Positions 1,539-41,365 of a stretch of DNA of 64,000 nucleotides are shown one piece after another (the stretch's first letter is position 1; the number at the start of each line of letters is the position of its first letter). The translations under genes and the position numbers were made by a program. A model generated the notes under the pieces. It had not been told where the DNA came from and made no database searches. It saw only the letters and a list, made by a program, of their open reading frames with translations. The stretch comes from Desulfatiglandales bacterium (GTDB lineage: Bacteria; Desulfobacterota; DSM-4660; Desulfatiglandales; Desulfatiglandaceae), in contig OY759599.1 in assembly GCA_963662465.1 (NCBI GenBank), positions 4,384,001 through 4,448,000 of the forward strand, read 5' to 3'.

Positions 1539-1739
1539 TTACTCCATAGCCTCAGAGATGATCATGTCACCACGAAGGAGGTTATTTACAACGGAATTTA
1601 TGTCAGTTCTTTTCCTCTGTGCTATTTTCTCCACAAATTCTTTTACTTCTCCCACAAGGTAAATTGGCAGGTTCAGTTTTAGATCTGTACGATAGAATTT
1701 GCCCCTTTCTCCCTTTGAAAAATCATACTCTTTTCTCAT
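1539..1739 (-). CDS. BrnA-like antitoxin
   Basis: N-terminus MRKEYDFSKGERGKFY; its start overlaps the stop of the upstream BrnT gene. Confidence 0.75.
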   Translation of the reverse strand: MRKEYDFSKGERGKFYRTDLKLNLPIYLVGEVKEFVEKIAQRKRTDINSVVNNLLRGDMIISEAME

Positions 1740-2029
1740 TATTGCTCTCCATATGAATGGACTTCCCTTTTGGATGCCTTGCGGCTTGAAAAAATACGTA
1801 TTGTCGCAGAGGCTGGATTTTTACGAAATGTATGGAATACAAGCAAGAGCCTGGCATTCTTTAATATACCTAATGTGACCCACCTATCCTCATTCCCGCT
1901 ATGATCTGGATCATATATTGTAACGGCCATTAGATCAAGAAATACGGTTGCCGCTTCTTCAAAATTGACCCCATGTTTTCTCTTGTTCAATTGTGCTTTT
2001 TGGGGATCCCATTCGAAGTCATAATCCAT
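1739..2029 (-). CDS. BrnT-family toxin
   Basis: FEWDPQKAQLNKRKHGVNFEEA...EDRWVTLG...IRIFSSRKA. True start is probably ATG 2029; the upstream MNINWILSADI residues are intron RT-derived. Confidence 0.85.
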   Translation of the reverse strand: MDYDFEWDPQKAQLNKRKHGVNFEEAATVFLDLMAVTIYDPDHSGNEDRWVTLGILKNARLLLVFHTFRKNPASATIRIFSSRKASKREVHSYGEQ

Positions 2030-2239
2030 AATATCCGCGCTCAAAATCCAGTTTATATTCAAACCGGCACACTTTTCACGAAATTCTTTCAGCGCCGGGT
2101 AAGGAAACTTTTGGCTCTCCCAGGTAAGCGAAGACTCCGGGTTCCCGAGCTATCCATTTGAATCCATGCCCTGGTCTCAGACCCCGGTGGTGACCTCATT
2201 TACGCGGGTTCCCAAGGTTTCGGGCTTACCTCGGCGCGA
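2030..2239 (-). pseudogene. Multiply deleted remnant of a class E-like group II intron, inserted in an attC
   Basis: Three patches match the intron at 18525-22706: its 5' end (2198-2239), an internal RNA segment (2104-2197) and an RT fragment LKEFREKCAGLNINWILSADI (2030-2100). Confidence 0.8.
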
Positions 2240-2281
2240 GCAGCGTTGGGTTGGGTGATCTCCACAACACTTGATGAAACA

Positions 2282-2630
2282 TCATGCCGCATTCAGGGCT
2301 GGCTGTGATTCCACATAAGTAGCCGGAATTTGCTCTGTTGGTGACGCCTGAAAATGGGTAAGTTTCAAAAACTGGCGTACCGGCATTGTATTTACCACGT
2401 GTAAAACTAACTCACGTAAGTCTTCAGGTACCTCATTCAGTTTGTCTAACGCATAGCTACGGGGTCCATATTCAGTGTGTTCCGTCAAAATCGAAAAATG
2501 AAGTACAGTGATGCTAATCGCCCGACGTGTTTGTAAATTTACTCGTAAAAGAATGTGATCGGTTAATTCCACCCCCGTGACCGGTTCATTTTGCCGAAAG
2601 AAGATTTCCAGAATATCAGCTTCTCGGTCT
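2282..2630 (-). pseudogene. 5'-truncated DUF2283-like cassette gene
   Basis: The frame extends upstream of the listed ORF as DREADILEIFF... (like YDxEADxLxI). It has no start codon and is fused directly to a truncated attC. Confidence 0.5.
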
Positions 2631-2711
2631 CAGATTGAATCTGAGCGGGGGGACTCTGTGCTTTAAATCAAATCAATCCGCCCCGCTCAGTTCAATCTGT
2701 AGGGGTTCGAC
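2631..2711 (-). other. attC lacking its R' core
   Basis: R'' GTCGAAC (2705-2711) complements the cassette start GTTCGAC (3169-3175). Strong stem CAGATTGAACTGAGCGGGG/CCCCGCTCAGATTCAATCTG. No following GTT. Confidence 0.65.
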
Positions 2712-2717
2712 CTGGCG

Positions 2718-3146
2718 TCAATCCATCAAATACACTGCCGAAGTGTCGAATGCCTCCTCCGGCGTACCGTGCCAAGACCCGTTATCGAAAAAAGATGGCT
2801 CGTACTTCATATGGCTGTACGTATAGAAAGCCATCGACCATTTATCTTCGTTACCAAAGAATCGAAGGCGGCACAGATGCGTCGGGACATCACGCAATTG
2901 TGCAACACGCTCTTCACGTGATTTCCCTCCAAAAAGCTCTGGATTGTAGTCTGAGGGAACAAAAGGTTCTTTGTAGGCATCGATATAACAAAACTTCCCT
3001 TTGAACCTGACTTCGATCCGGTTATACTTTCCAGCATAGTATTTCTGCGCATGCGCAAGGATGCGTTGACGAATACGAGGTTTCTTGGCATCCGGAATTT
3101 TCGTACCCCCAGAGTGAGGGTCATAAATCCAAGTTTTTCTTTGCAT
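2718..3146 (-). CDS. Hypothetical cassette protein
   Basis: ORF (ATG 3146, MQRKTWIYDPHSGG) fills the space between the G/TT core at 3175 and the attC at 2711. Confidence 0.75.
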   Translation of the reverse strand: MQRKTWIYDPHSGGTKIPDAKKPRIRQRILAHAQKYYAGKYNRIEVRFKGKFCYIDAYKEPFVPSDYNPELFGGKSREERVAQLRDVPTHLCRLRFFGNEDKWSMAFYTYSHMKYEPSFFDNGSWHGTPEEAFDTSAVYLMD

Positions 3147-3168
3147 TTCAGTATACCTATTTATGCGA

Positions 3169-3303
3169 GTCGAACGACCGGGGTAAGTTACCGCCAACAT
3201 TGAGAACTAAGCAACTTACGGGTCCCTCTCCTGGCTTTCTTCGAGGAAGTAGCCGTGAAAAATCGCCATGTTGTTGGCGGTCTCCTTGACCCCATGGTTA
3301 CGT
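3169..3303 (-). other. attC site
   Basis: ACGTAAC...GTTCGAC cores with inner arms ACCGCCAACA/TGTTGGCGGT; 135 bp. Confidence 0.7.
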
Positions 3304-3427
3304 CAATATGGGGGCGTGAAAGGCAAAAGGGAGCTTAAGGTGAATCAAATTATTTGACTTTTTTCATGACATCCTTTAATCTTCCTAATATCCTAAGCTT
3401 ATTAATTAAATTGAAAAAGGTATATCA

Positions 3428-4653
3428 TTGGCGAAGTTACCATCTTATGTTCGTGAAGTAAATGTTGCATTTGAATATCTGTTAGAAGAGTACTGTAATG
3501 AAAGCTATGATATCACCGAATCCATAGCTGAAATAAATAATTACACCAATATAGACCCGGAATTCAACATTAATGATGAGGAAAAAATTGTTGCTTCTTT
3601 TTTAAAAAAGCCATGTCCATGTTCACGGAACTGTCAAAAACAACTAAATCAGGATGAAGTAATCAGCAACCGAGCATTTTTCCGATCTTTGGAAGAAGGA
3701 AAGGAACTACATTCTTCTGGTACAACTGAGGTCTTTGCTTTCCCACTCAGAATATTCGATTTCAGCTCGTTCAAAGAAAAACAGAGAGAGGAAAAGATTT
3801 GATTACCGCATTAGCATTGATCGTCCGGTGTGCAAGGCTGTTTTTCTGTTTTACTATGGAGAAACTTCAAAGAGATTAGACCGACTTAAGAACTATGTTA
3901 CTGGAAAAGCTATATCTATGCCGATTCACGGCAATTCTGGTCGCACACCTGCAAATGCATACGACATGTATGACAAAGAAAAAGTAAAATTATTTCTAAC
4001 AAATTTTCTGGCTATCCACGGATTGCCCGATCCTGGTCGAGATGTCAGAAAGGGAAAAGGTAAATTGCGAGTCCTTCTACCTTCGATTATGAACTTCAAC
4101 TCGGTACATCGGCAATATGCAATAAGTATTAAAGCTTCCGGCAAATCTCCCATTGCCTATCGAACTTTTATAAAGATTTGGAAGGAAGAGTTTCCACATG
4201 CCAAATTTAACGATCCTAGAAGCGATCTTTGCATGACATGTGAAGACTTTAAAAAGCGCTTAAATCAAGTTGCAGCGGTATTAGATGAAGAAAAGGAAAA
4301 AAAACAAGCGCAAATACATAAGGAAGCTCTTGACCATTTAAAACAAGTCAAGAAGGAACGGCTTTTCTATAAAGCAAATACAAAAATTGCAAATAGCTAT
4401 TGTCAAAAACTTGGCTCAGAAGCTCTCCATTCCAAACCCAGCAAACCGAATTCAAAAAACATTATGTCTCATTATTCATGGGACTTCGCCCAACAACTGC
4501 ATTACCCTTTTGAAGATCAGCAAGTTGGTCCTATTTTTTTTAAAACACCCCGAAGAACACAACTTTTTGGGGTATGTAACGAAGGAGTTCCGTGCCAATA
4601 TAACTACCTGATCGACGAAGAACACTTTCTCGGAAAAAATGCTAATACAGTTA
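3428..4653 (+). pseudogene. Frameshifted, IS-truncated transposase resembling eukaryotic Sola-type DDD transposases
   Basis: Motifs CPC..C, VCK..FL, HGN.GR.P, TF..IW..EFP, DLCMTC and SWDFAQQLHYP...GPIFFKTPR...FGVCNE...NYLIDE...GKNANTV. Frameshift near 3695; cut by the IS at 4654; AT-rich. Confidence 0.65.
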
Positions 4654-5960
4654 CGCATAAGTCTAAATGTTGTGGGGTTGTATAACCCATCAAAATTAAA
4701 AGGCGTTTTCGGTAAACAAGAATGCATTATGAACATTCATAACTTGAATCCAAGGTAAGTCAAATGTTTGGCCGTTGGCTAATTCAAAGGGACTTTTATG
4801 AGCATTTTTTGCGCCAGGTAAAAATGGGACAAAATTCCTGATAGTCGCATGTGCTCGAAAGAAAAGACTTGCCCATTTCTTATCTCGAAAACTCTCAATT
4901 TGTTTTAGTTTACGTTTGATTCCTTTTAAATAATTGTCAACAATGGAGGTTGTTTGTTTTATCCCATTTCTATTTTTATGAGAGGTATAATGAGTGGCAT
5001 TTTCTTTTAATTCTACTACCCTCTTTTTTAGTAATGGATGAGAAAATGCATCGTCATCTAATGCCTTAATCTTTACTTCCAAGTTAACTTTAGATGTGGA
5101 TGTTTTCAAAACTTTCTTAAATTTTTTATAAAGCTTGTCCACTTCTTGGTCGGTACATTTTGATTCTTTTTGATATTTTGATAGTGCATCGTAGAAGTTT
5201 TTCAAACAATGACGATGGCAATATCCGACCCAAATGTTATGGAATACGGTCTTGATAGCATTGGTTGAGGCTTTCCACTTATCTTTTGTTACACCAAGGA
5301 TTTTGAAGTCGATTTTTTGCAAAAAATCCTCAAATGAACCGCACAGGTTTTCTTCATCAACATGATCAACATAATCGGAGTGCCATACTAATAAATTTTC
5401 AGGATCGACCATAACTACAGAATAAGTTCTTAAATTTGGTTCTTTTTCAAAGCCCTCATCTTCCTGTAGATATCCTGAGCCTTTCACTCCTGCTCTTGTT
5501 AGTATTGTTGCAGGATGAAGTGTTCCTGCCCATCGATTCCAGTTCAAGATGGTCTGTTTGCTTTTGACACTTTTTTTGCCAATAATTTTAAGGCTTTCGA
5601 TGGCTCCTTGAATGCTCGCATTAAAACGGTACATATTCCGAAATACGTGCCCAATAATCTCTATACCAAAATTCTTTTCCCTTGGGAGAAAGCTGGGAAC
5701 AAGAGAGAACTTTTGTTTGCACTTCCGGCATTGTATCATGCGGATTGGGAATGTCTGTTGTTCTCCTCCATTCATTATTGTTTTTCGAGGATTCCCGCGG
5801 AAACCAGATAAAATATATTCTTTAGGTCCAGAACATGTTGAATTATGGCCTGTGTGGTGATCATATTTATCGAGTTTATCTAATACTTCAATGCGAAACT
5901 TCTTACTATCTTTTACGAGAGCATGATAGCTTTCGGTGTTATTATAAGGAAAGATATATG
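4654..5960 (-). mobile_element. Truncated copy (1307 bp) of the 2006-bp IS
   Basis: Starts with the IR CGCATAAGTCTAAATGTTGTGGGGTT and is near-identical to the 3' part of the full copies. Interrupted by the next copy at 5961. Confidence 0.9.
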
Positions 5961-7966
5961 CGCATAAGTCTAAATGTTGTGGGGTTGTATAACCCATCAA
6001 AATTAAAAGGCGTTTTCGGTAAACAAGAATGCATTATGAACATTCATAACTTGAATCCAAGGTAAGTCAAATGTTTGGCCGTTGGCTAATTCAAAGGGAC
6101 TTTTATGAGCATTTTTTGCGCCAGGTAAAAATGGGACAAAATTCCTGATAGTCGCATGTGCTCGAAAGAAAAGACTTGCCCATTTCTTATCTCGAAAACT
6201 CTCAATTTGTTTTAGTTTACGTTTGATTCCTTTTAAATAATTGTCAACAATGGAGGTTGTTTGTTTTATCCCATTTCTATTTTTATGAGAGGTATAATGA
6301 GTGGCATTTTCTTTTAATTCTACTACCCTCTTTTTTAGTAATGGATGAGAAAATGCATCGTCATCTAATGCCTTAATCTTTACTTCCAAGTTAACTTTAG
6401 ATGTGGATGTTTTCAAAACTTTCTTAAATTTTTTATAAAGCTTGTCCACTTCTTGGTCGGTACATTTTGATTCTTTTTGATATTTTGATAGTGCATCGTA
6501 GAAGTTTTTCAAACAATGACGATGGCAATATCCGACCCAAATGTTATGGAATACGGTCTTGATAGCATTGGTTGAGGCTTTCCACTTATCTTTTGTTACA
6601 CCAAGGATTTTGAAGTCGATTTTTTGCAAAAAATCCTCAAATGAACCGCACAGGTTTTCTTCATCAACATGATCAACATAATCGGAGTGCCATACTAATA
6701 AATTTTCAGGATCGACCATAACTACAGAATAAGTTCTTAAATTTGGTTCTTTTTCAAAGCCCTCATCTTCCTGTAGATATCCTGAGCCTTTCACTCCTGC
6801 TCTTGTTAGTATTGTTGCAGGATGAAGTGTTCCTGCCCATCGATTCCAGTTCAAGATGGTTTGTTTGCTTTTGACACTTTTTTTGCCAATAATTTTAAGG
6901 CTTTCGATGGCTCCTTGAATGCTCGCATTAAAACGGTACATATTCCGAAATACGTGCCCAATAATCTCTATACCAAAATTCTTTTCCCTTGGGAGAAAGC
7001 TGGGAACAAGAGAGAACTTTTGTTTGCACTTCCGGCATTGTATCATGCGGATTGGGAATGTCTGTTGTTCTCCTCCATTCATTATTGTTTTTCGAGGATT
7101 CCCGCGGAAACCAGATAAAATATATTCTTTAGGTCCAGAACATGTTGAATTATGGCCTGTGTGGTGATCATATTTATCGAGTTTATCTAATACTTCAATG
7201 CGAAACTTCTTACTATCTTTTACGAGAGCATGATAGCTTTCGGTGTTATTATAAGGAAAGATATATGTTTGATTTCCTCGTTTAGAAACAAGGTCTTCCA
7301 TTTTCTTTTTTACATTTTCGATTATGGATTTATCAAAAGATTTTAACATCCCTATCTCAAATGCAATACTTATTGTACTATCACGACTTTTTACATTATT
7401 CAATTTTTTAGTAATATTACTTATCATTGAACGAATTGAATAAAAGATTCTAATTTTCTGTCGATCCCGTTGTGTTTTTGGAATGCTTTTTTTCCCTTTT
7501 ATTGGCTTACAAATATCCCATAATTGACTTATTAACCTACCAAGTTCATCAATAAGAGCAGACAATGTTACATAAAAATATTGCAATGATTGAAACATCT
7601 CCCTTTCATTGATCCATGATCTGATGGCATTAATGCATTTCTCAATTTCAAAGAAAATCTCAGGATACTGTTTTGGATCGTAATAACATTGTCTTGCAAG
7701 TCTGTTTTGAGCTTTGTCCAACATTGTCAAAGCTCTCTTAATATTATTAATCATGTGCAACCTCTCTAATTTAACATAGACTGTTGCACTATGATTATGC
7801 ACACTTATCAAAAAAAGTCCCTAACTTTTTTCCGCTAAGGCGAATTCAGGAAAAAATGTTTGGCCTCACGAAATGCGCTTTGATTAGGATATTGATTCGG
7901 AACCGTTTAACAGATGAAATAATTTCAATATGTTAGAGTAAACCCCACAACATTTAGACTTATGCG
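5961..7966 (-). mobile_element. 2006-bp IS, full copy
   Basis: 26-bp terminal inverted repeats; flanks GATATATG and CAAAAAAC do not match, so there is no TSD. Confidence 0.92.
6003..7811 (-). CDS. DDE-type transposase (IS256/ISH6-like, family uncertain)
   Basis: Only long ORF between the IRs. CxxC finger, QEDE, TKDKW, CHRH and TTSIVDN motifs. Same protein as 20180-21988. Confidence 0.85.
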   Translation of the reverse strand: MISVHNHSATVYVKLERLHMINNIKRALTMLDKAQNRLARQCYYDPKQYPEIFFEIEKCINAIRSWINEREMFQSLQYFYVTLSALIDELGRLISQLWDICKPIKGKKSIPKTQRDRQKIRIFYSIRSMISNITKKLNNVKSRDSTISIAFEIGMLKSFDKSIIENVKKKMEDLVSKRGNQTYIFPYNNTESYHALVKDSKKFRIEVLDKLDKYDHHTGHNSTCSGPKEYILSGFRGNPRKTIMNGGEQQTFPIRMIQCRKCKQKFSLVPSFLPREKNFGIEIIGHVFRNMYRFNASIQGAIESLKIIGKKSVKSKQTILNWNRWAGTLHPATILTRAGVKGSGYLQEDEGFEKEPNLRTYSVVMVDPENLLVWHSDYVDHVDEENLCGSFEDFLQKIDFKILGVTKDKWKASTNAIKTVFHNIWVGYCHRHCLKNFYDALSKYQKESKCTDQEVDKLYKKFKKVLKTSTSKVNLEVKIKALDDDAFSHPLLKKRVVELKENATHYTSHKNRNGIKQTTSIVDNYLKGIKRKLKQIESFRDKKWASLFFRAHATIRNFVPFLPGAKNAHKSPFELANGQTFDLPWIQVMNVHNAFLFTENAF

Positions 7967-8285
7967 CAAAAAACACACTGATGCGAAAATGAACACATGC
8001 GTCACATGTCGGTTCATATAGTTCCCCTGTTATTTCAAGTGGTTGTAATGTTGGGAAACTAATATAATACAAACAGCTGTGAATGTCCATCGTTATTCCA
8101 GCATGTTATCGTATTGTTTTTGAATCCATTAAAAAATAATAATAGCTATGAATTACGACAATTTCGAATCAATCTATCAAGGCGCTCGTTCCTGTTCCCC
8201 TTATGGGCCTGTATCCTTACCGGGGATGTACTACCAATGCCTCTGATATCGTATTTTATCGTGGAGATGTTGTTCCGCCAAGTAA

Positions 8286-18107: not shown

Positions 18108-18335
18108 TTAAGCTTGGGCTTTATTTATGCGCTCTGCAATCCAGCTTTTGATTACGGATTGCGTCGCGATTCCAAGCCGCTTCGCTTCGCGATCGAGCAA
18201 TTCGATCATCCAGACCGGGAAGTCTACATTGATCCGCTTGTACTCGTGACCCGGACGGGTAGCCTTGGAGAAGTCGAGGTATTTGTCGACGTCTTCTCCA
18301 TCGTCAAACTTTTTGTCAAACTCCTTAGTCTTCAT
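18108..18335 (-). CDS. BrnA/CopG-like antitoxin
   Basis: EFDKKFDDGEDV...RINVDFPVWMI..LDREAKRLG...IKSWIAER. Confidence 0.85.
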   Translation of the reverse strand: MKTKEFDKKFDDGEDVDKYLDFSKATRPGHEYKRINVDFPVWMIELLDREAKRLGIATQSVIKSWIAERINKAQA

Positions 18336-18524
18336 ATCGTTCTATCTCCTTCGTACGTGAACGCCGGACGGAGATGATCCTTATTCTATCGCCGCGCGGT
18401 GTGAAAATCGCCGACCAATGCCTACTTCCGATTCGTCCGATCAACATGTAACGCGGTTCGCCTTGCGTGCGGGCAGGGACTTGCAGACGTTCTGGGTCCT
18501 CCCAGAGGGCTTGGGCCTCAACGA
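18325..18524 (-). pseudogene. 5'-truncated BrnT toxin fused in frame to an intron RT fragment
   Basis: FVEAQALWEDP...EPRYMLIG...IRIISVRRSR. Confidence 0.8.
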
Positions 18525-20137
18525 AGTTTATGTTCAAACCAGCACACTTTTCACGAAGTTCTTTCAGCGCCAGGTGTTGACTGTGACCCTCCCGAAATCC
18601 ATGGGAAACGTCATAAAACAAGGGCTCGTAAACCAGCCCCAGCAAAGCCGCCACCGCCTTCTGGACAATCTTGTCTTCCAGCGCCGGAATCCCTATCGGT
18701 CTCTTTTTACCGCCTTCCTTGTCCACCCATATGCGCTTGACCGGTGATGCAACGTACTGCCCTCTTCGCAGCCGTTCGTACAGTTTATAGAGGTTTTCAT
18801 TAAGATCGGCGGCATAGGTCTTCGCCGTTATCTTGTCAACTCCGGTCGACTCATTCTTACTCAAGCCCTTGAATGACTTTTTCAATAAATCAAAGTCTAT
18901 CCAATGCGCAAGTGATGTGAACACCGTTTGTGGATCGGCCATCCCCCGTATTGCTACCCGGGCAAGACTTGATTCACCGACCAGTACGGGGAGACCATGT
19001 GTACTCGGTTCTTCGGACTTCTGAGCAACCTGCTCCGCAATTTCCTGATTTTCCATTGATATGGGTTGTGACCTCTGAGTGTCTTCCATAGTTCCTATCA
19101 GAAAAACGTTATACCCTGCTTCACCTTCCCTACAGTGGGTCGCCTGGGCGTAACTTCCCCACCTTCCCGGCACCATCCTCGGCGCCATCGGTACTATGTT
19201 CCGCTAAGACTGCCAAAAGTCCCTCTCAAGCGCGTTCGCTTTTCGCTGTCCACACCTGATACCCTGTCTGCTTTCTTTCTTTGTGTTTCTTGCGACTCGT
19301 TTGCGGGTGAAAGCCTCCCGCTAACACCGGGGCTCTTGATCTCCCGGTACCCCTTGTCTTCCGGGTGTTTACACAAGGAGACTTTTGGCTCTCCCGAGTT
19401 CCCGAGCTATCCATTTGAATCCATGCCCTGGTCGTCGGGTAGAAATACGGCGCGCTCACCCTTAGGCAGAGAGTTTCCGTCTTGCACCCTTTCGGTTGTG
19501 CAGCGGGTTCCTAGTTCCGCCATAGCCAACGTTTCCGCAAGCCCCCCTCTCATCCCGGACGGTCGGATTTCCCGAGTCCGGTTGGCGGCCAGTGGTCTTC
19601 ATGTATTATCTCCGATACGCCTTCCCATATTACCGGAGGCTTAAGTACACGCCCACATACACCCCTCACTAATATGGTTTACTTATCGGATAGCCCGAGG
19701 CTCCGTTGACCAACTTTTACGGGCTCTGCGTCCCTTGTTTGGTGTCTTCCTTCCGGGCGACCACTGTACCGAGAGCCCCTTTGCCTTATCAGGGTATTAC
19801 CCCTCAAAGCGTCGCATTTACTGCGACATAGGCTGACATTACTCAACTCTCTTCGCTCATACGGGCTCATGCGCCGGACCAAACCCCTCTTGCTGCCTCG
19901 GCTTGTCACCTTGTGCAACACGTCTTCGCAGGTTGCTGCGTGCCCCTGCTGGGAGATGGCCCTTCCCGACGTTATCTCCTTAATCTTTATATGGGTGCCT
20001 GGACCCGTACCCCGCCGCGCTTCTCCGGTGCATTTGCTCGTTTCTTCCCGGAAAACATCGGCCTCACCTCAGTCTTAACAGGTTCGGCGCGCTGAAACCC
20101 CCACCGCATAGCAACTTCTACGATGGCCACCTTTTTC

Positions 20138-22143
20138 CGCATAAGTCTAAATGTTGTGGGGTTGTATAACCCATCAAAATTAAAAGGCGTTTTCGGTAAA
20201 CAAGAATGCATTATGAACATTCATAACTTGAATCCAAGGTAAGTCAAATGTTTGGCCGTTGGCTAATTCAAAGGGACTTTTATGAGCATTTTTTGCGCCA
20301 GGTAAAAATGGGACAAAATTCCTGATAGTCGCATGTGCTCGAAAGAAAAGACTTGCCCATTTCTTATCTCGAAAACTCTCAATTTGTTTTAGTTTACGTT
20401 TGATTCCTTTTAAATAATTGTCAACAATGGAGGTTGTTTGTTTTATCCCATTTCTATTTTTATGAGAGGTATAATGAGTGGCATTTTCTTTTAATTCTAC
20501 TACCCTCTTTTTTAGTAATGGATGAGAAAATGCATCGTCATCTAATGCCTTAATCTTTACTTCCAAGTTAACTTTAGATGTGGATGTTTTCAAAACTTTC
20601 TTAAATTTTTTATAAAGCTTGTCCACTTCTTGGTCGGTACATTTTGATTCTTTTTGATATTTTGATAGTGCATCGTAGAAGTTTTTCAAACAATGACGAT
20701 GGCAATATCCGACCCAAATGTTATGGAATACGGTCTTGATAGCATTGGTTGAGGCTTTCCACTTATCTTTTGTTACACCAAGGATTTTGAAGTCGATTTT
20801 TTGCAAAAAATCCTCAAATGAACCGCACAGGTTTTCTTCATCAACATGATCAACATAATCGGAGTGCCATACTAATAAATTTTCAGGATCGACCATAACT
20901 ACAGAATAAGTTCTTAAATTTGGTTCTTTTTCAAAGCCCTCATCTTCCTGTAGATATCCTGAGCCTTTCACTCCTGCTCTTGTTAGTATTGTTGCAGGAT
21001 GAAGTGTTCCTGCCCATCGATTCCAGTTCAAGATGGTCTGTTTGCTTTTGACACTTTTTTTGCCAATAATTTTAAGGCTTTCGATGGCTCCTTGAATGCT
21101 CGCATTAAAACGGTACATATTCCGAAATACGTGCCCAATAATCTCTATACCAAAATTCTTTTCCCTTGGGAGAAAGCTGGGAACAAGAGAGAACTTTTGT
21201 TTGCACTTCCGGCATTGTATCATGCGGATTGGGAATGTCTGTTGTTCTCCTCCATTCATTATTGTTTTTCGAGGATTCCCGCGGAAACCAGATAAAATAT
21301 ATTCTTTAGGTCCAGAACATGTTGAATTATGGCCTGTGTGGTGATCATATTTATCGAGTTTATCTAATACTTCAATGCGAAACTTCTTACTATCTTTTAC
21401 GAGAGCATGATAGCTTTCGGTGTTATTATAAGGAAAGATATATGTTTGATTTCCTCGTTTAGAAACAAGGTCTTCCATTTTCTTTTTTACATTTTCGATT
21501 ATGGATTTATCAAAAGATTTTAACATCCCTATCTCAAATGCAATACTGATTGTACTATCACGACTTTTTACATTATTCAATTTTTTAGTAATATTACTTA
21601 TCATTGAACGAATTGAATAAAAGATTCTAATTTTCTGTCGATCCCGTTGTGTTTTTGGAATGCTTTTTTTCCCTTTTATTGGCTTACAAATATCCCATAA
21701 TTGACTTATTAACCTACCAAGTTCATCAATAAGAGCAGACAATGTTACATAAAAATATTGCAATGATTGAAACATCTCCCTTTCATTGATCCATGATCTG
21801 ATGGCATTAATGCATTTCTCAATTTCAAAGAAAATCTCAGGATACTGTTTTGGATCGTAATAACATTGTCTTGCAAGTCTGTTTTGAGCTTTGTCCAACA
21901 TTGTCAAAGCTCTCTTAATATTATTAATCATGTGCAACCTCTCTAATTTAACATAGACTGTTGCACTATGATTATGCACACTTATCAAAAAAAGTCCCTA
22001 ACTTTTTTCCGCTAAGGCGAATTCAGGAAAAAATGTTTGGCCTCACGAAATGCGCTTTGATTAGGATATTGATTCTGAACCGTTTAACAGATGAAATAAT
22101 TTCAATATGTTAGAGTAAACCCCACAACATTTAGACTTATGCG
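20138..22143 (-). mobile_element. 2006-bp IS, full copy with 8-bp TSD
   Basis: 26-bp IRs; TSD CCTTTTTC at 20130-20137 and 22144-22151. Confidence 0.95.
20180..21988 (-). CDS. DDE-type transposase (same protein as 6003-7811)
   Basis: Identical 602-aa translation. Confidence 0.85.
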   Translation of the reverse strand: MISVHNHSATVYVKLERLHMINNIKRALTMLDKAQNRLARQCYYDPKQYPEIFFEIEKCINAIRSWINEREMFQSLQYFYVTLSALIDELGRLISQLWDICKPIKGKKSIPKTQRDRQKIRIFYSIRSMISNITKKLNNVKSRDSTISIAFEIGMLKSFDKSIIENVKKKMEDLVSKRGNQTYIFPYNNTESYHALVKDSKKFRIEVLDKLDKYDHHTGHNSTCSGPKEYILSGFRGNPRKTIMNGGEQQTFPIRMIQCRKCKQKFSLVPSFLPREKNFGIEIIGHVFRNMYRFNASIQGAIESLKIIGKKSVKSKQTILNWNRWAGTLHPATILTRAGVKGSGYLQEDEGFEKEPNLRTYSVVMVDPENLLVWHSDYVDHVDEENLCGSFEDFLQKIDFKILGVTKDKWKASTNAIKTVFHNIWVGYCHRHCLKNFYDALSKYQKESKCTDQEVDKLYKKFKKVLKTSTSKVNLEVKIKALDDDAFSHPLLKKRVVELKENATHYTSHKNRNGIKQTTSIVDNYLKGIKRKLKQIESFRDKKWASLFFRAHATIRNFVPFLPGAKNAHKSPFELANGQTFDLPWIQVMNVHNAFLFTENAF

Positions 22144-23089
22144 CCTTTTTCGAGGCTGCAGTCATTCCTTTATGTTCAAGCTCCCATACTTGCTAGGCCC
22201 CCAGGTTGCACCCACCGCTGGAGATCAACTTCTCCAGGGCGGCCGGGCCGTTTACACCACGCAATGGACATGAGGTTACCCTTCATGAACTGTGGTATCG
22301 CTACACACTCGAATCGAGCAATTAGTATGACGGAACTTTCACCCGCTAGATTAAGGCCTTGTCGGCCGCTACCTAAGACCCCGGTGGCAACCTCAACACT
22401 CGCCATGGCGCATCAAGGTTTGCTGCCTTCCGCTTGCTCCAAAGCGTCGGCTTTCTCCCACATTTGTAGGATTATCCAATGACCACAACTATACATTTTT
22501 CGGGGCTCAATACACGTCCTGGATTCTCGTTCCGTCCAGCTCCATACGCCGGTTACCCGGTTTGCACGTGGACTTCACTACCGAACTGGTGGCTAACCTT
22601 TGCTCGGGTGGGACTTTCGCTTTCCGCGATCACCCACTGGATAACAATAACCAATTTCATCCCGATTTACGCGGGTTCCCAAGGTTTCGGGCTTACCTCG
22701 GCGCGAGCAGCGTTTGCTTCGCCACTGTGGACGATCCTAAGTATACGGAATTTCGGCGAAAACAACTGCACCTTTCCAGATTGATAATGCCTTATTTTCT
22801 TTGGGAACTCGGTTTGATTTTCGTGTTTCCACGAAATGCCTTAGGATCATATCAATTTCGAATTCCCACCATTAAATGAAAAAAACTTCCTTTTTGATTC
22901 TCCCCCGCACTTCAGGTTGCTTTTATGTTTTTGTCATTCCTTTCTTAGATGCTGGGTACATTCTTACCTACTGGGGACATCCTTTTCTTTGTAAATGGGT
23001 TAGATTATGTCCTAAATTTTGACCGTCCTTATAAGGCAATCGACTGAAATTTCAGTGAAAGATGTCGTCGCAAAAGAGTTGCGCCCATT

Positions 23090-23849: not shown

Positions 23850-26075
23850 GTCGAGTAGCCAGGGGATGTTGCCATCCCCCAGCCCTCTAAGAACCGTGCG
23901 TGCGCCGTTAAACGCACACGGCTCAAGCATTCCAAAGGCAAGCCCTTTCGGGGCTACCCGGTTGTGACGTTTTATGCTCTTTACGCCTGTCTGCCTTCTG
24001 CTGACTGCGTTGGGCATATCGTTTCCTGAAATAGTGTTCATATTTCGGATCGAAGGGGTTCGCATCCCCTCGAATTTTGACATGGCGTTTTATCTTGACG
24101 TCGTAAGCTTTCTCAAGTTCAATTCTAGCGGATTTCGCATAGCCGTCCTTGATCACCGCTGAAAAGGACCACGGACGAGATCCTTTTGACCAGTATTTAT
24201 CCACCAGCCAACTCTTACTCTTGCCCGAATGTTTCCTCCTCATCCATTGCCAAATATAGCTGTAGATACGGTGATCTACAAGCCCGAAAGTTCTACCGGA
24301 AACCACATGCCTGTGGTAATTGGCCCATCCCCTGATTTTGGGATTGAGCACTTTAATCAGGGTGTCGGCTCTTGATGCCGCATGCTTTCGGATCGTTTGC
24401 CGGATATTGCCTAAGAAGGCTTTCACGTTTTTACGAGAGGGCTTTATCAAGAGCTTCCCCTGGTATTTGCGTGGATTCTGTCCGAGAAAATCAAATCCTT
24501 CTTCTATCCTTGTGATCAACGTCTTTTCCGCTGAAAGCGAAAGTCCTCTTCGCTCCATAAATGCTTCAATTTCCAGCTTGATCTCATTTAGCATCTCTCT
24601 GGAATTCCCGGTGATGATGAAATCATCAGCGTAACGGATTACGTTTATCTTGGACCGTATATTGCCCTGGATTCTTATCGGGGCGGTACTTTTGGCTGCC
24701 GCTTCCAGACCATCCAGGACCATATTAGCCAATGTTGGAGAGATAATCCCGCCTTGCGGGGTTCCTCTGTAAGTCGGATAGAGCTTGCCTCCTTCCACAT
24801 AACCGGATTTCAGCCATTTCTGAAGCGTCCGTTTATCCATGGGGATATTTTCGAGCATCCATTGATGGCTGATTTCGTCAAAACAGGCCTTTATGTCTCC
24901 CTCCAAAATCCATGCGGGTGAGTAGCTCTTGGCCAGAGAAATAAAACAATGACCGATGGCATCCGCACATCCTCGATAGGCTCTGAACCCATAAGAGTTC
25001 GGATCGGCGGTGGTTTCCGCCACCGGATCAAGGGCCAGTTTGTGCAACGCCTGCATGGCTCTGTCTTTCATGGTGGGAATGCCCAATGGGCGTTTCTTGC
25101 CGTTTTTCTTGGGTATGTAAATTCGGCGCAGCGGTTTGGGTCGGTAAGTTCTTCGGTGCAGGTCTTTTGCCGCCTGCATTTTGTCAATGTGGGTGGACCA
25201 TATAACTTTATCCACTCCCGGCGTGCGTTTACCTCGGTTGGAAGTAACGCGCTTGATGGCCAACAACTTGGCATAAAACGAATGGGTCAAAAGCCATTGT
25301 ATTGCCTTAACCTTTCCCCATCGCTTTTCCTTCACAGCCTTTGCGATACGCACCTGCAGTCTTCTAACGTGCTCGCCGGCGGTTCTCCAGTTTATGGATT
25401 TCCACCAGTTTGTTCCGTCCAAAGGTGCACCAGTCGCCAAAATGGCCACCGTCATTTGCTTTCCCCTGTTTGAAGATTCTACAAATTATCTCGCAATGGA
25501 ACACCGGTCAGAAGTCTGCTCTCTTTCGAGCCGGATCATGTAGGTGATTACACCGTCAATCCGTATCCCCATCATTACAACGGGGCATTTGCTTTTTTCT
25601 GACATCCTTTACCCGCAACCCCATGGGCTCACCTTGCGGTTCGCTTTCCCCGTGGGGAGGATTACGGGCTTACCATGTTCCGCGTAAGTACCCGAGCAGG
25701 TTAGGTTCCGCCCGTACGCCGGTGGCACGACATCCGCGATGGAGGAGTTCGCAGCCCCCATACCTGGCCACATACCGTTTGGTCCAAGCCTTTCAGCATC
25801 TTAGGCTTGTTCTCGTGACGACGCTGCAGCGATTCACATGTGTTAACCATACTGCTCAATTCTAGCTCCCTTACCGCATGATGCTTGCAGAGTTGAGGTC
25901 TCCTCACGGTTCCCTCTCCCGGAAGATTCCGCGGGCTTCATTGTCCCGAGAGCTTCACACCCCCGGATTACTCCGGACGCATGTCCCGGTAGAATACCTG
26001 TTGCAGAAAACAGGGTTTTGTTATATGGTTTATATCAATATACAAAACAGCTACTTACGCGACATCACGTCGCAC
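23850..26075 (-). mobile_element. Complete group IIB (chloroplast-like class) intron inserted in an attC R' core
   Basis: 5' GTGCG at 26075; DV GAGCCGTGTGCG...CGCACGCACGGTTC; DVI ending TACTCGAC at 23850; EBS1 and EBS2 match the 5' exon. Confidence 0.93.
23923..25455 (-). CDS. ltrA: Group II intron reverse transcriptase/maturase, with no HNH domain evident
   Basis: RVT_N-type W..INW...VRRLQ.RIAKA; RPLGIPT, GTPQGG, RYADDF, GFDFLG; maturase LNPKIRGWANY. Confidence 0.93.
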   Translation of the reverse strand: MTVAILATGAPLDGTNWWKSINWRTAGEHVRRLQVRIAKAVKEKRWGKVKAIQWLLTHSFYAKLLAIKRVTSNRGKRTPGVDKVIWSTHIDKMQAAKDLHRRTYRPKPLRRIYIPKKNGKKRPLGIPTMKDRAMQALHKLALDPVAETTADPNSYGFRAYRGCADAIGHCFISLAKSYSPAWILEGDIKACFDEISHQWMLENIPMDKRTLQKWLKSGYVEGGKLYPTYRGTPQGGIISPTLANMVLDGLEAAAKSTAPIRIQGNIRSKINVIRYADDFIITGNSREMLNEIKLEIEAFMERRGLSLSAEKTLITRIEEGFDFLGQNPRKYQGKLLIKPSRKNVKAFLGNIRQTIRKHAASRADTLIKVLNPKIRGWANYHRHVVSGRTFGLVDHRIYSYIWQWMRRKHSGKSKSWLVDKYWSKGSRPWSFSAVIKDGYAKSARIELEKAYDVKIKRHVKIRGDANPFDPKYEHYFRKRYAQRSQQKADRRKEHKTSQPGSPERACLWNA

Positions 26076-28722: not shown

Positions 28723-29922
28723 TTACGCTGCCTGTGCATATACCGTATCCGGGTCCTTATTGAACCTCGGAAGACTTTTTGACTTTCTTACCGGTGCAAC
28801 TATTTTCAACGTAATAAGACGTTTCCCGCAAACTGGGCAACAATCCGGTTGCTCGTCGCTTCGCTGCTGCCACAGACTCTGCCAGTCCAGAAATTCCGTA
28901 TCTTCAAGTGCCGGTTGTCCCAGTATTTCCCGGCAGCGTGCCAGTTCTTTTTTTGCGTTGTGATGGTAAAGGCCGTATGAACGCACCATCATGGAATTCG
29001 CCAGGGGAACGTGTTGCAGGTAGCGGCCGATAAAGGTTTGAATCGGCAAGGTAATGAGTCTTACCCGCTCACGACCGTAATTGAAGGTGACGTTTCCGTT
29101 TTCAATGCGGAAGATGCGTTTATTTGAGATCGGTCCGCCTCTCAGATACCGGGCCAGGTAAATTAAGACCCCTTCTCCGTATGAATAGGTCTCCTTGAGT
29201 TTAACGTTCCACTTCTTACGGCGCCCCAACTTATTAAACAGGTTTCGCGCCTGCTGCGGTCCCATGCCTTCGGGCAGAATCAGTTCTTCACGGGCAAGGG
29301 CTTTTCTCAAATAGTGGAGATATTTTCCTCGAAAAACCGCCCGGACAATGCCAAACGGCAGAAGAAACGTTTTTGATGAAGCAATCCACTCGCCGGCGGA
29401 CAGACCACCGGCCGTCACCAAACAATGCAAATGGGGATGAAAATCCAATTTTCGGCTCCAGGTATGCAACGAGGCAATGATGCCGACTTTGGCCCCCAAA
29501 TGCTTCGGGTCTCCAAGGAGTTCGGAAAGGGTCTCGGTCGCGCTTTTGAACAGCAGATTAGCCATGACTTTACGGTTCAGCCGCCATAAGTCATGCAATT
29601 CATCGGAGATGGTGAAAATAACGTGGAAATGCTCGGCACTCAGGAGTCGGGCCTTTTGTTTCGCCAGCCACCGCTCAACCTGGGTGAAGGCGCAGAGTGG
29701 GCACATACGGTGTTTACACGAGTTATACCAGACCCTCTGGAAGTGACCATCCGGACATGCCTGGACGTGCCCCCCCAGAATGGACGTGCGGCAGGACATC
29801 AGACGATGAGCCGCCTCACGAATATGTTCCGGAAGACAATGCGTCTGATTATAGAGGGCATAGCCAAGAAGAAAGATGCCCTGAATCGTCGTTTCCACTG
29901 CGATTTCACCTATTTCTACCAA
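28723..29922 (-). CDS. IS91-family (Y2 HUH) transposase, copy 8 from attI
   Basis: Zn-binding CPDGH...SCKHRMCPLC; HUH HPHLH; Y2 YLARY; VRSYG; CPVCG. Confidence 0.92.
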   Translation of the reverse strand: MVEIGEIAVETTIQGIFLLGYALYNQTHCLPEHIREAAHRLMSCRTSILGGHVQACPDGHFQRVWYNSCKHRMCPLCAFTQVERWLAKQKARLLSAEHFHVIFTISDELHDLWRLNRKVMANLLFKSATETLSELLGDPKHLGAKVGIIASLHTWSRKLDFHPHLHCLVTAGGLSAGEWIASSKTFLLPFGIVRAVFRGKYLHYLRKALAREELILPEGMGPQQARNLFNKLGRRKKWNVKLKETYSYGEGVLIYLARYLRGGPISNKRIFRIENGNVTFNYGRERVRLITLPIQTFIGRYLQHVPLANSMMVRSYGLYHHNAKKELARCREILGQPALEDTEFLDWQSLWQQRSDEQPDCCPVCGKRLITLKIVAPVRKSKSLPRFNKDPDTVYAQAA

Positions 29923-30331
29923 TTTTCGACGTTAAGTTCCCCCGCTGTCCAGCGGGTCTGTCCAACGTTTAGTTAACTGGAAAACGGGTTCAAAAAAATA
30001 TATTATCATTCCAGCTGGTGACTTCGTAGGAACCAACGCATTTCGGTTTATCTCCCAATACCAGTTTTCCAGTTCAACGGGGTGTTGGACAGAGCCGCGG
30101 GTCATCAGCACATACTTTGCCGGAAGCAGGAGATCGGCTATGGAGATTAAGGGAGCTTCTCAGCTGTCGCGTGACCTCTTTTTAACCCGTCATGGCCGGT
30201 TAAGGATGATAAAATTCCTGCTTTCAATTGCATGATCCGTCAAAAACCCTGAAATATCGCGTTATTTATCCCTTTACCAAACGCCTCGCCATTCAAGTGC
30301 CTTTTTGAATATGCTCATGTTTATTATCGTT

Positions 30332-31531
30332 TTACGCTGCCTGTGCATATACCGTATCCGGGTCCTTATTGAACCTCGGAAGACTTTTTGACTTTCTTAC
30401 CGGTGCAACTATTTTCAACGTAATAAGACGTTTCCCGCAAACTGGGCAACAATCCGGTTGCTCGTCGCTTCGCTGCTGCCACAGACTCTGCCAGTCCAGA
30501 AATTCCGTATCTTCAAGTGCCGGTTGTCCCAGTATTTCCCGGCAGCGTGCCAGTTCTTTTTTTGCGTTGTGATGGTAAAGGCCGTATGAACGCACCATCA
30601 TGGAATTCGCCAGGGGAACGTGTTGCAGGTAGCGGCCGATAAAGGTTTGAATCGGCAAGGTAATGAGTCTTACCCGCTCACGACCGTAATTGAAGGTGAC
30701 GTTTCCGTTTTCAATGCGGAAGATGCGTTTATTTGAGATCGGTCCGCCTCTCAGATACCGGGCCAGGTAAATTAAGACCCCTTCTCCGTATGAATAGGTC
30801 TCCTTGAGTTTAACGTTCCACTTCTTACGGCGCCCCAACTTATTAAACAGGTTTCGCGCCTGCTGCGGTCCCATGCCTTCGGGCAGAATCAGTTCTTCAC
30901 GGGCAAGGGCTTTTCTCAAATAGTGGAGATATTTTCCTCGAAAAACCGCCCGGACAATGCCAAACGGCAGAAGAAACGTTTTTGATGAAGCAATCCACTC
31001 GCCGGCGGACAGACCACCGGCCGTCACCAAACAATGCAAATGGGGATGAAAATCCAATTTTCGGCTCCAGGTATGCAACGAGGCAATGATGCCGACTTTG
31101 GCCCCCAAATGCTTCGGGTCTCCAAGGAGTTCGGAAAGGGTCTCGGTCGCGCTTTTGAACAGCAGATTAGCCATGACTTTACGGTTCAGCCGCCATAAGT
31201 CATGCAATTCATCGGAGATGGTGAAAATAACGTGGAAATGCTCGGCACTCAGGAGTCGGGCCTTTTGTTTCGCCAGCCACCGCTCAACCTGGGTGAAGGC
31301 GCAGAGTGGGCACATACGGTGTTTACACGAGTTATACCAGACCCTCTGGAAGTGACCATCCGGACATGCCTGGACGTGCCCCCCCAGAATGGACGTGCGG
31401 CAGGACATCAGACGATGAGCCGCCTCACGAATATGTTCCGGAAGACAATGCGTCTGATTATAGAGGGCATAGCCAAGAAGAAAGATGCCCTGAATCGTCG
31501 TTTCCACTGCGATTTCACCTATTTCTACCAA
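30332..31531 (-). CDS. IS91-family transposase, copy 7
   Basis: Identical translation. Confidence 0.92.
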   Translation of the reverse strand: MVEIGEIAVETTIQGIFLLGYALYNQTHCLPEHIREAAHRLMSCRTSILGGHVQACPDGHFQRVWYNSCKHRMCPLCAFTQVERWLAKQKARLLSAEHFHVIFTISDELHDLWRLNRKVMANLLFKSATETLSELLGDPKHLGAKVGIIASLHTWSRKLDFHPHLHCLVTAGGLSAGEWIASSKTFLLPFGIVRAVFRGKYLHYLRKALAREELILPEGMGPQQARNLFNKLGRRKKWNVKLKETYSYGEGVLIYLARYLRGGPISNKRIFRIENGNVTFNYGRERVRLITLPIQTFIGRYLQHVPLANSMMVRSYGLYHHNAKKELARCREILGQPALEDTEFLDWQSLWQQRSDEQPDCCPVCGKRLITLKIVAPVRKSKSLPRFNKDPDTVYAQAA

Positions 31532-31940
31532 TTTTCGACGTTAAGTTCCCCCGCTGTCCAGCGGGTCTGTCCAACGTTTAGTTAACTGGAAAACGGGTTC
31601 AAAAAAATATATTATCATTCCAGCTGGTGACTTCGTAGGAACCAACGCATTTCGGTTTATCTCCCAATACCAGTTTTCCAGTTCAACGGGGTGTTGGACA
31701 GAGCCGCGGGTCATCAGCACATACTTTGCCGGAAGCAGGAGATCGGCTATGGAGATTAAGGGAGCTTCTCAGCTGTCGCGTGACCTCTTTTTAACCCGTC
31801 ATGGCCGGTTAAGGATGATAAAATTCCTGCTTTCAATTGCATGATCCGTCAAAAACCCTGAAATATCGCGTTATTTATCCCTTTACCAAACGCCTCGCCA
31901 TTCAAGTGCCTTTTTGAATATGCTCATGTTTATTATCGTT

Positions 31941-33140
31941 TTACGCTGCCTGTGCATATACCGTATCCGGGTCCTTATTGAACCTCGGAAGACTTTTTGA
32001 CTTTCTTACCGGTGCAACTATTTTCAACGTAATAAGACGTTTCCCGCAAACTGGGCAACAATCCGGTTGCTCGTCGCTTCGCTGCTGCCACAGACTCTGC
32101 CAGTCCAGAAATTCCGTATCTTCAAGTGCCGGTTGTCCCAGTATTTCCCGGCAGCGTGCCAGTTCTTTTTTTGCGTTGTGATGGTAAAGGCCGTATGAAC
32201 GCACCATCATGGAATTCGCCAGGGGAACGTGTTGCAGGTAGCGGCCGATAAAGGTTTGAATCGGCAAGGTAATGAGTCTTACCCGCTCACGACCGTAATT
32301 GAAGGTGACGTTTCCGTTTTCAATGCGGAAGATGCGTTTATTTGAGATCGGTCCGCCTCTCAGATACCGGGCCAGGTAAATTAAGACCCCTTCTCCGTAT
32401 GAATAGGTCTCCTTGAGTTTAACGTTCCACTTCTTACGGCGCCCCAACTTATTAAACAGGTTTCGCGCCTGCTGCGGTCCCATGCCTTCGGGCAGAATCA
32501 GTTCTTCACGGGCAAGGGCTTTTCTCAAATAGTGGAGATATTTTCCTCGAAAAACCGCCCGGACAATGCCAAACGGCAGAAGAAACGTTTTTGATGAAGC
32601 AATCCACTCGCCGGCGGACAGACCACCGGCCGTCACCAAACAATGCAAATGGGGATGAAAATCCAATTTTCGGCTCCAGGTATGCAACGAGGCAATGATG
32701 CCGACTTTGGCCCCCAAATGCTTCGGGTCTCCAAGGAGTTCGGAAAGGGTCTCGGTCGCGCTTTTGAACAGCAGATTAGCCATGACTTTACGGTTCAGCC
32801 GCCATAAGTCATGCAATTCATCGGAGATGGTGAAAATAACGTGGAAATGCTCGGCACTCAGGAGTCGGGCCTTTTGTTTCGCCAGCCACCGCTCAACCTG
32901 GGTGAAGGCGCAGAGTGGGCACATACGGTGTTTACACGAGTTATACCAGACCCTCTGGAAGTGACCATCCGGACATGCCTGGACGTGCCCCCCCAGAATG
33001 GACGTGCGGCAGGACATCAGACGATGAGCCGCCTCACGAATATGTTCCGGAAGACAATGCGTCTGATTATAGAGGGCATAGCCAAGAAGAAAGATGCCCT
33101 GAATCGTCGTTTCCACTGCGATTTCACCTATTTCTACCAA
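31941..33140 (-). CDS. IS91-family transposase, copy 6
   Basis: Identical translation. Confidence 0.92.
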   Translation of the reverse strand: MVEIGEIAVETTIQGIFLLGYALYNQTHCLPEHIREAAHRLMSCRTSILGGHVQACPDGHFQRVWYNSCKHRMCPLCAFTQVERWLAKQKARLLSAEHFHVIFTISDELHDLWRLNRKVMANLLFKSATETLSELLGDPKHLGAKVGIIASLHTWSRKLDFHPHLHCLVTAGGLSAGEWIASSKTFLLPFGIVRAVFRGKYLHYLRKALAREELILPEGMGPQQARNLFNKLGRRKKWNVKLKETYSYGEGVLIYLARYLRGGPISNKRIFRIENGNVTFNYGRERVRLITLPIQTFIGRYLQHVPLANSMMVRSYGLYHHNAKKELARCREILGQPALEDTEFLDWQSLWQQRSDEQPDCCPVCGKRLITLKIVAPVRKSKSLPRFNKDPDTVYAQAA

Positions 33141-33549
33141 TTTTCGACGTTAAGTTCCCCCGCTGTCCAGCGGGTCTGTCCAACGTTTAGTTAACTGGAA
33201 AACGGGTTCAAAAAAATATATTATCATTCCAGCTGGTGACTTCGTAGGAACCAACGCATTTCGGTTTATCTCCCAATACCAGTTTTCCAGTTCAACGGGG
33301 TGTTGGACAGAGCCGCGGGTCATCAGCACATACTTTGCCGGAAGCAGGAGATCGGCTATGGAGATTAAGGGAGCTTCTCAGCTGTCGCGTGACCTCTTTT
33401 TAACCCGTCATGGCCGGTTAAGGATGATAAAATTCCTGCTTTCAATTGCATGATCCGTCAAAAACCCTGAAATATCGCGTTATTTATCCCTTTACCAAAC
33501 GCCTCGCCATTCAAGTGCCTTTTTGAATATGCTCATGTTTATTATCGTT

Positions 33550-34749: not shown

Positions 34750-35158
34750 TTTTCGACGTTAAGTTCCCCCGCTGTCCAGCGGGTCTGTCCAACGTTTAGT
34801 TAACTGGAAAACGGGTTCAAAAAAATATATTATCATTCCAGCTGGTGACTTCGTAGGAACCAACGCATTTCGGTTTATCTCCCAATACCAGTTTTCCAGT
34901 TCAACGGGGTGTTGGACAGAGCCGCGGGTCATCAGCACATACTTTGCCGGAAGCAGGAGATCGGCTATGGAGATTAAGGGAGCTTCTCAGCTGTCGCGTG
35001 ACCTCTTTTTAACCCGTCATGGCCGGTTAAGGATGATAAAATTCCTGCTTTCAATTGCATGATCCGTCAAAAACCCTGAAATATCGCGTTATTTATCCCT
35101 TTACCAAACGCCTCGCCATTCAAGTGCCTTTTTGAATATGCTCATGTTTATTATCGTT

Positions 35159-36358: not shown

Positions 36359-36767
36359 TTTTCGACGTTAAGTTCCCCCGCTGTCCAGCGGGTCTGTCCA
36401 ACGTTTAGTTAACTGGAAAACGGGTTCAAAAAAATATATTATCATTCCAGCTGGTGACTTCGTAGGAACCAACGCATTTCGGTTTATCTCCCAATACCAG
36501 TTTTCCAGTTCAACGGGGTGTTGGACAGAGCCGCGGGTCATCAGCACATACTTTGCCGGAAGCAGGAGATCGGCTATGGAGATTAAGGGAGCTTCTCAGC
36601 TGTCGCGTGACCTCTTTTTAACCCGTCATGGCCGGTTAAGGATGATAAAATTCCTGCTTTCAATTGCATGATCCGTCAAAAACCCTGAAATATCGCGTTA
36701 TTTATCCCTTTACCAAACGCCTCGCCATTCAAGTGCCTTTTTGAATATGCTCATGTTTATTATCGTT

Positions 36768-37967: not shown

Positions 37968-38376
37968 TTTTCGACGTTAAGTTCCCCCGCTGTCCAGCGG
38001 GTCTGTCCAACGTTTAGTTAACTGGAAAACGGGTTCAAAAAAATATATTATCATTCCAGCTGGTGACTTCGTAGGAACCAACGCATTTCGGTTTATCTCC
38101 CAATACCAGTTTTCCAGTTCAACGGGGTGTTGGACAGAGCCGCGGGTCATCAGCACATACTTTGCCGGAAGCAGGAGATCGGCTATGGAGATTAAGGGAG
38201 CTTCTCAGCTGTCGCGTGACCTCTTTTTAACCCGTCATGGCCGGTTAAGGATGATAAAATTCCTGCTTTCAATTGCATGATCCGTCAAAAACCCTGAAAT
38301 ATCGCGTTATTTATCCCTTTACCAAACGCCTCGCCATTCAAGTGCCTTTTTGAATATGCTCATGTTTATTATCGTT

Positions 38377-41328: not shown

Positions 41329-41358
41329 TTGACTTTTCCATCTATTGCGCAATATCGT
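41329..41358 (+). promoter_or_regulatory. Possible intI promoter
   Basis: TTGACT-N18-TATCGT just upstream of ATG 41366. Confidence 0.3.
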
Positions 41359-41365
41359 CAATAGC

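Follow-up and report, generated by a model that had tools for sequence, protein, structure and literature searches.

Whether the cut-and-paste transposon superfamilies of eukaryotes have genuine prokaryotic members is disputed, and a broken gene in the chromosome of a Desulfatiglandales bacterium raises this question for one of them. The gene lies in a stretch of 64,000 nucleotides (contig OY759599.1, positions 4,384,001 to 4,448,000; hereafter the window), and the chromosome is complete, consisting of a single contig of 8.16 Mb. Translation of the + strand displays the motifs HGNSGRTP, DLCMTC, DFAQQLHYP, GPIFFKTPR, FGVCNE, NYLIDE and GKNANTV, a series that a first-pass annotation had likened to Sola-type DDD transposases of fungi, oomycetes and animals. 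A preprint of 2021 (10.1101/2021.09.26.461848) states, in its accessible part, that not one of the prokaryotic hits to eukaryotic DDE superfamilies could be confirmed. A review (PMC10741241) credits, in its accessible text, Bao et al. (2009) with Sola elements in bacteria, and the novelty of the present case is therefore modest. A literature search (DUF7869; Sola superfamily; bacterial Sola1 insertion sequences) retrieved no paper describing the bacterial elements reported here. With a probability of about 85%, we consider positions 3310–4653 of the window to be an inactivated relic of a bacterial, insertion sequence (IS)-like element of about 2.1 kb that is of the Sola type and most likely belongs to the Sola1 group.

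Positions 3310–4653 correspond to the left two-thirds of this element on the + strand, and nucleotide homology to relatives begins at about 3305 and ends at 4651–4653 (Table 1). The true terminus is the G at 3310; position 3331, near which a terminus had initially been placed, falls inside the terminal inverted repeat (TIR). The transposase gene is split into two ORFs, both on the + strand (3428–3802, 124 aa; 3735–4685, 316 aa), by a frameshift that had been suspected near 3695 and that DNA alignment locates as a 2-nt gap between 3692 and 3693, in an A-rich stretch, relative to 4 of 4 intact relatives. The part past the frameshift contains the motifs listed above and only the first of the putative catalytic aspartates (in WDFAQQ). 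The second and third aspartate, most of the DUF7869 domain and the right TIR are absent, some 225 C-terminal residues and the right end being missing. Homology stops at the edge of an incomplete copy of a 2007-bp IS, and hence the right end has been lost, as the first-pass annotation had assumed. The window copy is an inactivated relic that can neither make transposase nor be mobilized, and is in itself junk DNA. It has a left end only, and its own target-site duplication (TSD) is therefore not checkable within the window.

Table 1. Features of the transposon relic and of the adjoining IS copies in the window
Feature	Position	Strand	Evidence or remark
ATAT, TSD-like flank	3306..3309	.	fits AWWT of intact relatives; right-hand partner lost
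Left TIR, 35 nt, GGGGGCGTGAAAGG...GGTGAA	3310..3344	+	aligned to both inverted ends of the intact elements L003, L013-L025 and L042
Transposase gene, 5' part, residues 1 to ~88, TTG start	3428..3692	+	P0001 residues 1-90, tblastn 96.7%
Transposase gene past the frameshift, residues ~89-409	3693..4653	+	P0001 residues 85-409, tblastn 98.5%
Truncated copy (about 1310 bp) of the 2007-bp IS; end abuts the broken transposase gene	4654..5960	-	99.9% to window 20135-21444
Full copy of the 2007-bp IS, 602-aa transposase	5961..7967	-	99.85% over 2007 bp to window 20138-22144

The gene is AT-rich, as had been remarked before, with a GC content of 0.371 for the element versus 0.495 for the genome. A promoter proposed upstream of it, composed of TTGACT (3354–3359) and TTTAAT (3375–3380), consists of hexamers that both exist, with a spacer of 15 nt. 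A promoter scan reports only ATGACA-17-TATCCT at 3366–3394, i.e. 1 site versus 0.6 expected by chance, and the promoter as proposed does not rise above chance level.

Searching the whole 8.16-Mb contig by tblastn with the relatives P0001 and P0002 yields the window locus as the sole match, in two pieces, and no further piece of the transposase gene elsewhere in the genome. There is likewise no intact copy. Two left-end stubs of about 100 bp occur at other sites of the chromosome (G000:C1:883619-883724 and 5523547-5523652); their TIR carries 2–3 mismatches, each is preceded by ATAT, and each gives way after some 100 bp to a different repeat, of which the genome contains more than 10 partial copies. 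The right-end TIR, in reverse complement, is absent from the whole genome when up to 7 mismatches are allowed. The family appears to be extinct in its host.

Within the IS that cuts the element, the ORF at 4696–6000 of the truncated copy is a shortened form of the 602-aa ORF of the full copy, and the 602-aa protein displays weak matches to DUF6431 and IS256-like transposases only. The genome contains 32 hits to this IS, 20 of them full-length. Its copies are very abundant and nearly identical to each other (99.7–99.95%), and the full and the truncated copy adjoin head-to-tail in the window (4654–7967).

The window fragments alone have no usable match in Pfam or NCBIfam; they retain only about 30 residues of the DUF7869 domain (PF25273), which places them below its detection. 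Longer homologues of the window protein number 231, and the best 120 of these 231 all carry DUF7869. The closest among these 120 is P0001, which is 99% identical to the window copy, and an intact member of 634 aa (P0310) belongs to the 90% cluster of the window copy. In four full-length relatives DUF7869 is matched at E about 1e-24 over residues 378–563, and all of 38 aligned members match it. Full-length relatives match DUF7869 only, so that neither a bacterial IS family nor a non-transposase protein emerges as the best profile hit. Three aspartates (D354, D433 and D475 in P0002 numbering) are conserved without exception in the 38 aligned relatives (alignment A1) and are also present in animal-type ORFs of three metagenome loci (L071, L073, L090). 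In the intact relatives they are candidates for the DDD triad.

The AlphaFold model (mean pLDDT 73.5) predicts a succession of strand-strand-strand-helix-strand-helix-strand over residues 345–465. D354 would be located on the first strand, D433 where the fourth strand ends and D475 after the fifth strand, the last in a loop of low confidence (pLDDT below 50). The top Foldseek matches are IstA (E 6.9e-4), TnsB, Mos1 and retroviral integrases. VIA-align yields Z 8.2–8.7 to the cores of Mos1 and retroviral integrases over residues ~310–509, with an rmsd of 3.0–3.3 over 123–136 residues for the integrases; these scores are middling, as VIA-align warns that Z 7–8 is common by chance. Despite the middling scores, all top fold hits are DDE/D recombinases. 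Together with the conserved aspartates and the fold matches, the model shows that intact relatives have an RNase H-like transposase core with a candidate DDD triad, of which the window copy keeps the first aspartate only. The evidence further indicates that DUF7869, to which Pfam assigns no function, covers most of this core, beginning at the second strand and extending past the third aspartate. A likely function as the catalytic core of a DDD transposase may hence be given to this domain.

The ends of the element can be studied in its relatives. Among 64 loci from metagenome-assembled genomes (MAGs) and metagenomes, 45 display an inverted-repeat pair, mostly spanning 2.03–2.35 kb. Genuine TIRs of 33–54 nt are present at 44 of them, the 45th pair (L044) being a chance match of 13 nt. 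The TIRs of intact elements start with GGGG or GGCG and end with GGTGAA, and these elements carry a single ORF of about 635 aa. The four bases flanking them fit AWWT at 72 of 78 ends (39 scored elements), and left and right flank are identical in 19 of the 39 (permutation mean 11.3, p = 0.0003), counts in which L030 duplicates L005 and two elements, L013 (contig cut) and L065 (one G short), are mis-scored. Identical flanks are found in 12 of 15 elements on contigs of at least 3.4 kb and in 7 of 24 on shorter contigs. The flanks differ in the other 20 elements, 17 of which are among the 24 on short contigs, where we assume that the mismatches stem from chimeric assembly of repeats. Most matching flanks are palindromic (ATAT, AATT), in which case a duplication is indistinguishable from an extension of the repeat; the 21 cases of non-palindromic flanks include 5 direct-repeat and 2 inverted-repeat matches. 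In having a 4-bp TSD with a preference for AWWT and TIRs bounding an element with a single transposase, the intact relatives agree with what characterizes Sola elements.

An insertion preference for AWWT, with a 4-bp TSD, is called a "hallmark" of Sola1 transposons in the accessible part of PMC3845634, where the Sola1 TIR begins with GGACCG and autonomous copies of 2.3–2.8 kb carry an ORF of 630 aa. An AWWT 4-bp TSD is also reported for Sola2 in the accessible part of PMC3627910, and the available text of PMC10741241 describes Sola elements in general by DDD transposases and 4-bp TSDs. As far as these descriptions go, the bacterial elements are like Sola1 of animals in their single ORF of about 630 aa, in an autonomous size of about 2.1–2.8 kb, in TIRs starting with GG and in a 4-bp TSD with AWWT preference; the three invariant aspartates of the bacterial proteins, the candidate triad, correspond to the DDD of the superfamily. 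Unlike Sola1, they have a bacterial host, are compact, IS-like and without introns, and their sequences form a diverse clade of their own. Their proteins also have neither the Ser/Pro-rich tail nor the C-terminal CCHC knuckle of the animal-type ORFs mentioned above. Sola2 is similar in some of its motifs: DFAENY, SDGAxxQYKN and SHGKSxCDGxGGTxKR (PMC3627910, Additional file 10, in the part available) have bacterial counterparts in WDFAQQ, ADNCVGQNKN and GHTKFSPDGYFGLIKR, a likeness judged by eye on the printed alignment. The strings GQNK and GHTKF do not occur in the accessible text of that Sola2 alignment, in which PDF spaces may hide them. According to the same source, as far as available, the Sola2 transposase is longer (888 aa), and its N-terminal FYxxDEYSRxxPGKKD block is absent from the bacterial proteins. 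The affiliation with Sola at superfamily level, first proposed from motifs, is well supported by DUF7869, the animal kin, the candidate DDD triad, the TIRs and the 4-bp AWWT duplications in intact copies. Membership in the Sola1 group is most likely, and is inferred from the hallmarks described in the papers rather than from an aligned curated Sola1 protein.

It seems improbable that the element belongs to a catalogued bacterial IS family, such as ISAzo13 (PF07592), and is only superficially like eukaryotic Sola. ISAzo13 elements have similar sizes and ends that start with G, and their transposase is also RNase H-like and of the DDE type. PF07592 is assigned to 11% of the members of one Atlas cluster of DUF7869 proteins, and among the 38 aligned members it is matched by one, at E 0.094; this is far below threshold, however, and the profile is absent in the other 37. 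No NCBIfam IS model matches any of the four full-length relatives at E up to 0.1, and strong full-length similarity goes to animal DUF7869 proteins instead. The relationship with ISAzo13 would be remote at best, and an IS type unmatched by the NCBIfam IS models is thereby brought to notice.

A search with a profile of the family retrieves no copy in 60 relatives or in the other 208 genomes of the class. A search with PF25273 gives 0 matches in 61 related genomes and also 0 in 14 control genomes, and is thus uninformative; tblastn of P0002 against 72,556 plasmids gives no match. One metagenome scan, in turn, returned 562 relatives, and an exhaustive search returned 6382 representatives at E <= 0.001, a number that falls to 2596 at <= 1e-10 and to 464 at <= 1e-30. 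Among the hosts named for relatives are Ca. Thiomargarita nelsonii and MAGs assigned to Legionellales, Desulfobulbaceae, Thermodesulfobacteriota and Desulfobacterales; some relatives carry a Bacteroidota label, but on contigs of about 2 kb with doubtful binning. In a Gammaproteobacteria MAG, intact copies reside on a 185-kb contig beside genes for gyrase/topoisomerase IV subunit A, an amidohydrolase and a methyltransferase. Within this MAG, identities of 99.2% and 97.1% between the copies of a pair point to recent transposition. The first-pass annotation had thought of a rare prokaryotic member of the superfamily; the bacterial setting is secure, and with 562 relatives from a single scan the family is not so rare among uncultured bacteria. 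Starting from the window copy, hundreds of intact relatives came to light whose ends and target sites are defined.

The nearest non-bacterial relatives of the full-length proteins are proteins of sponges, corals and priapulids, and the nearest Atlas clusters are eukaryotic DUF7869 proteins of Mollusca and Arthropoda. The window fragment shares 35% identity with a protein of the sponge Halichondria (E 3e-48), and P0002 shares 37% over 589 aa with a protein of the coral Acropora (E 1e-119). Metagenome loci on large contigs encode relatives of 661–730 aa with Ser/Pro-rich tails and CCHC knuckles; one of these is 89% identical to a protein of Halichondria panicea, and others match proteins of Dysidea, Priapulus and Acropora. 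As a separate observation, one metagenome record (L068-L091, contigs up to 1.3 Mb) holds at least 20 DUF7869 copies that are 34–46% identical to the bacterial type, and the three ORFs inspected among them, at L071, L073 and L090, have CCHC-knuckle tails and appear to be animal (sponge-like) DNA.

Two trees bear on the origin of the bacterial elements. In a tree of 47 rows, a branch with SH-aLRT 100 sets apart the 23 bacterial-type rows, among them the window copy beside P0001; about 2 changes per site lie between this clade and the rows of sponge, coral and priapulid. In a tree of 62 rows the sister (SH-aLRT 97) of the bacterial-type clade is a second group, situated on contigs of about 2–4.5 kb and including one member from a Desulfobacterales MAG; with a midpoint root, both bacterial-type clades are nested among unlabelled lineages.

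A cross-domain transfer had been offered as an alternative to prokaryotic membership, and the trees argue against a recent one. We regard it as highly improbable that this bacterium or its close relatives took up a Sola transposon straight from an animal or protist. Such an acquisition could account for an element that is AT-rich relative to its host and not found in the 60 relatives or the other 208 genomes of the class, and it would fit a family whose diversity appears mostly eukaryotic, with animals as the named nearest Atlas clusters, many homologues of the sponge-type ORF on contigs of hundreds of kb to Mb, and representatives (the 6382 at E <= 0.001) that bear no taxon labels. The window copy, however, is 99% identical to a metagenome protein and lies deep within the bacterial-type clade, whose distance from the animal rows is large and whose sister group is also bacterial-type, and identity to animal proteins amounts to only 35–37%. 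The nesting among bacterial-type sequences, together with this low identity, implies that any transfer into the genome came from other bacteria, and a recent jump from animal to bacterium is unlikely.

An older event is a different matter. Since the bacterial-type clades are nested, under the midpoint root, among a diversity residing mostly on large contigs of eukaryote type, an ancient descent from a eukaryote-to-bacterium transfer is conceivable. Tentatively, and with clear reservations, the bacterial DUF7869 elements might be regarded as an uncatalogued, currently active IS family that represents a prokaryotic branch of Sola1 and that perhaps arose by such a transfer. A survey of 2021 reports no conclusive transfer of a transposon from a eukaryote to a bacterium.

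That the locus is eukaryotic contamination or a mis-assembly is scarcely credible: although the preprint of 2021 (10.1101/2021.09.26.461848), in the part available, judged all 65 'bacterial' eukaryotic-DDE hits unconfirmed and possibly contaminant, and although many relatives are found on contigs of ~2.1–2.7 kb for which MAG binning is unreliable, the window copy lies inside the 8.16-Mb contig between a BrnT gene and a bacterial IS with 20 full-length copies, two further left-end stubs exist elsewhere on the chromosome, and intact copies stand among bacterial housekeeping genes on the 185-kb contig. The locus therewith provides a clean, contamination-proof case of a Sola-type transposon within a complete bacterial chromosome.

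For the Sola-type element we propose the following mode of action. An intact element consists of one gene for a DDD transposase of about 635 aa between TIRs of about 35–40 nt. The transposase would bind the GGGG...GGTGAA repeats, and its RNase H-like core with D354, D433 and D475 (P0002 numbering) is predicted to cut and paste the element. Insertion would take place at AWWT sites by a 4-bp staggered cut that is subsequently duplicated. The window copy probably entered an ATAT site in a chromosome that is poorer in AT than the element itself. It would later have decayed by the 2-nt frameshift and by loss of its last ~720 bp, where the 2007-bp IS is now situated; the order of these events is our suggestion.

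The first-pass annotation had placed the gene within an integron, antisense to the gene cassettes. The element is bordered by a BrnT toxin gene, beside which stands a small ORF without family match. The antisense orientation holds, as the genes at 1539–3200 are on the - strand; these may be cassettes. The left flank is a mosaic of modules which occur separately in genomes of the same genus, and a weak attC-like candidate is located at 3192–3279 (-12 kcal/mol; z -2.0 when folded as 3185–3290). These modules and the weak hairpin are consistent with cassettes and do not prove them. Scanning with a strict attC pattern gave 14 candidates, none of which folds well; the candidate at 3192–3279 and the hairpins named next come from a looser pattern scan. 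An integron integrase is encoded at 41345–42361 (TIGR02249, 445.7 bits, cut-off 265), 36.7 kb from the element, and clear attC-like hairpins of 131 nt are confined to 29960–39744, between eight IS91-type genes beside this integrase.

These eight genes are ORFs of 399 aa for IS91-family transposases (NF033538, 357 bits) on the - strand at 28723–41185, with a period of 1609 bp. The 131-nt hairpin (GTCCAAC...GTTGGAC) is present between seven of the eight, and the array directly adjoins the integrase, looking like an amplified IS91-type gene cassette. Tandem Repeats Finder, with a longest period of 500, is blind to this array. At 2632–2707, between two small ORFs, the window contains a 76-nt repeat forming a strong single-stranded DNA hairpin (-25 kcal/mol, z -7.2), which is 88–91% conserved in two genomes of the same genus and could represent an attC or a REP-like element. 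Over its first 28 kb the window is a graveyard of mobile elements, with IS66, IS21 (IstB) and three tyrosine recombinases. At 23923–25455 (-) it encodes a complete group II intron reverse transcriptase/maturase, and an ORF of 287 aa at 18325–19188 (-) fuses a reverse transcriptase fragment with a BrnT toxin domain.
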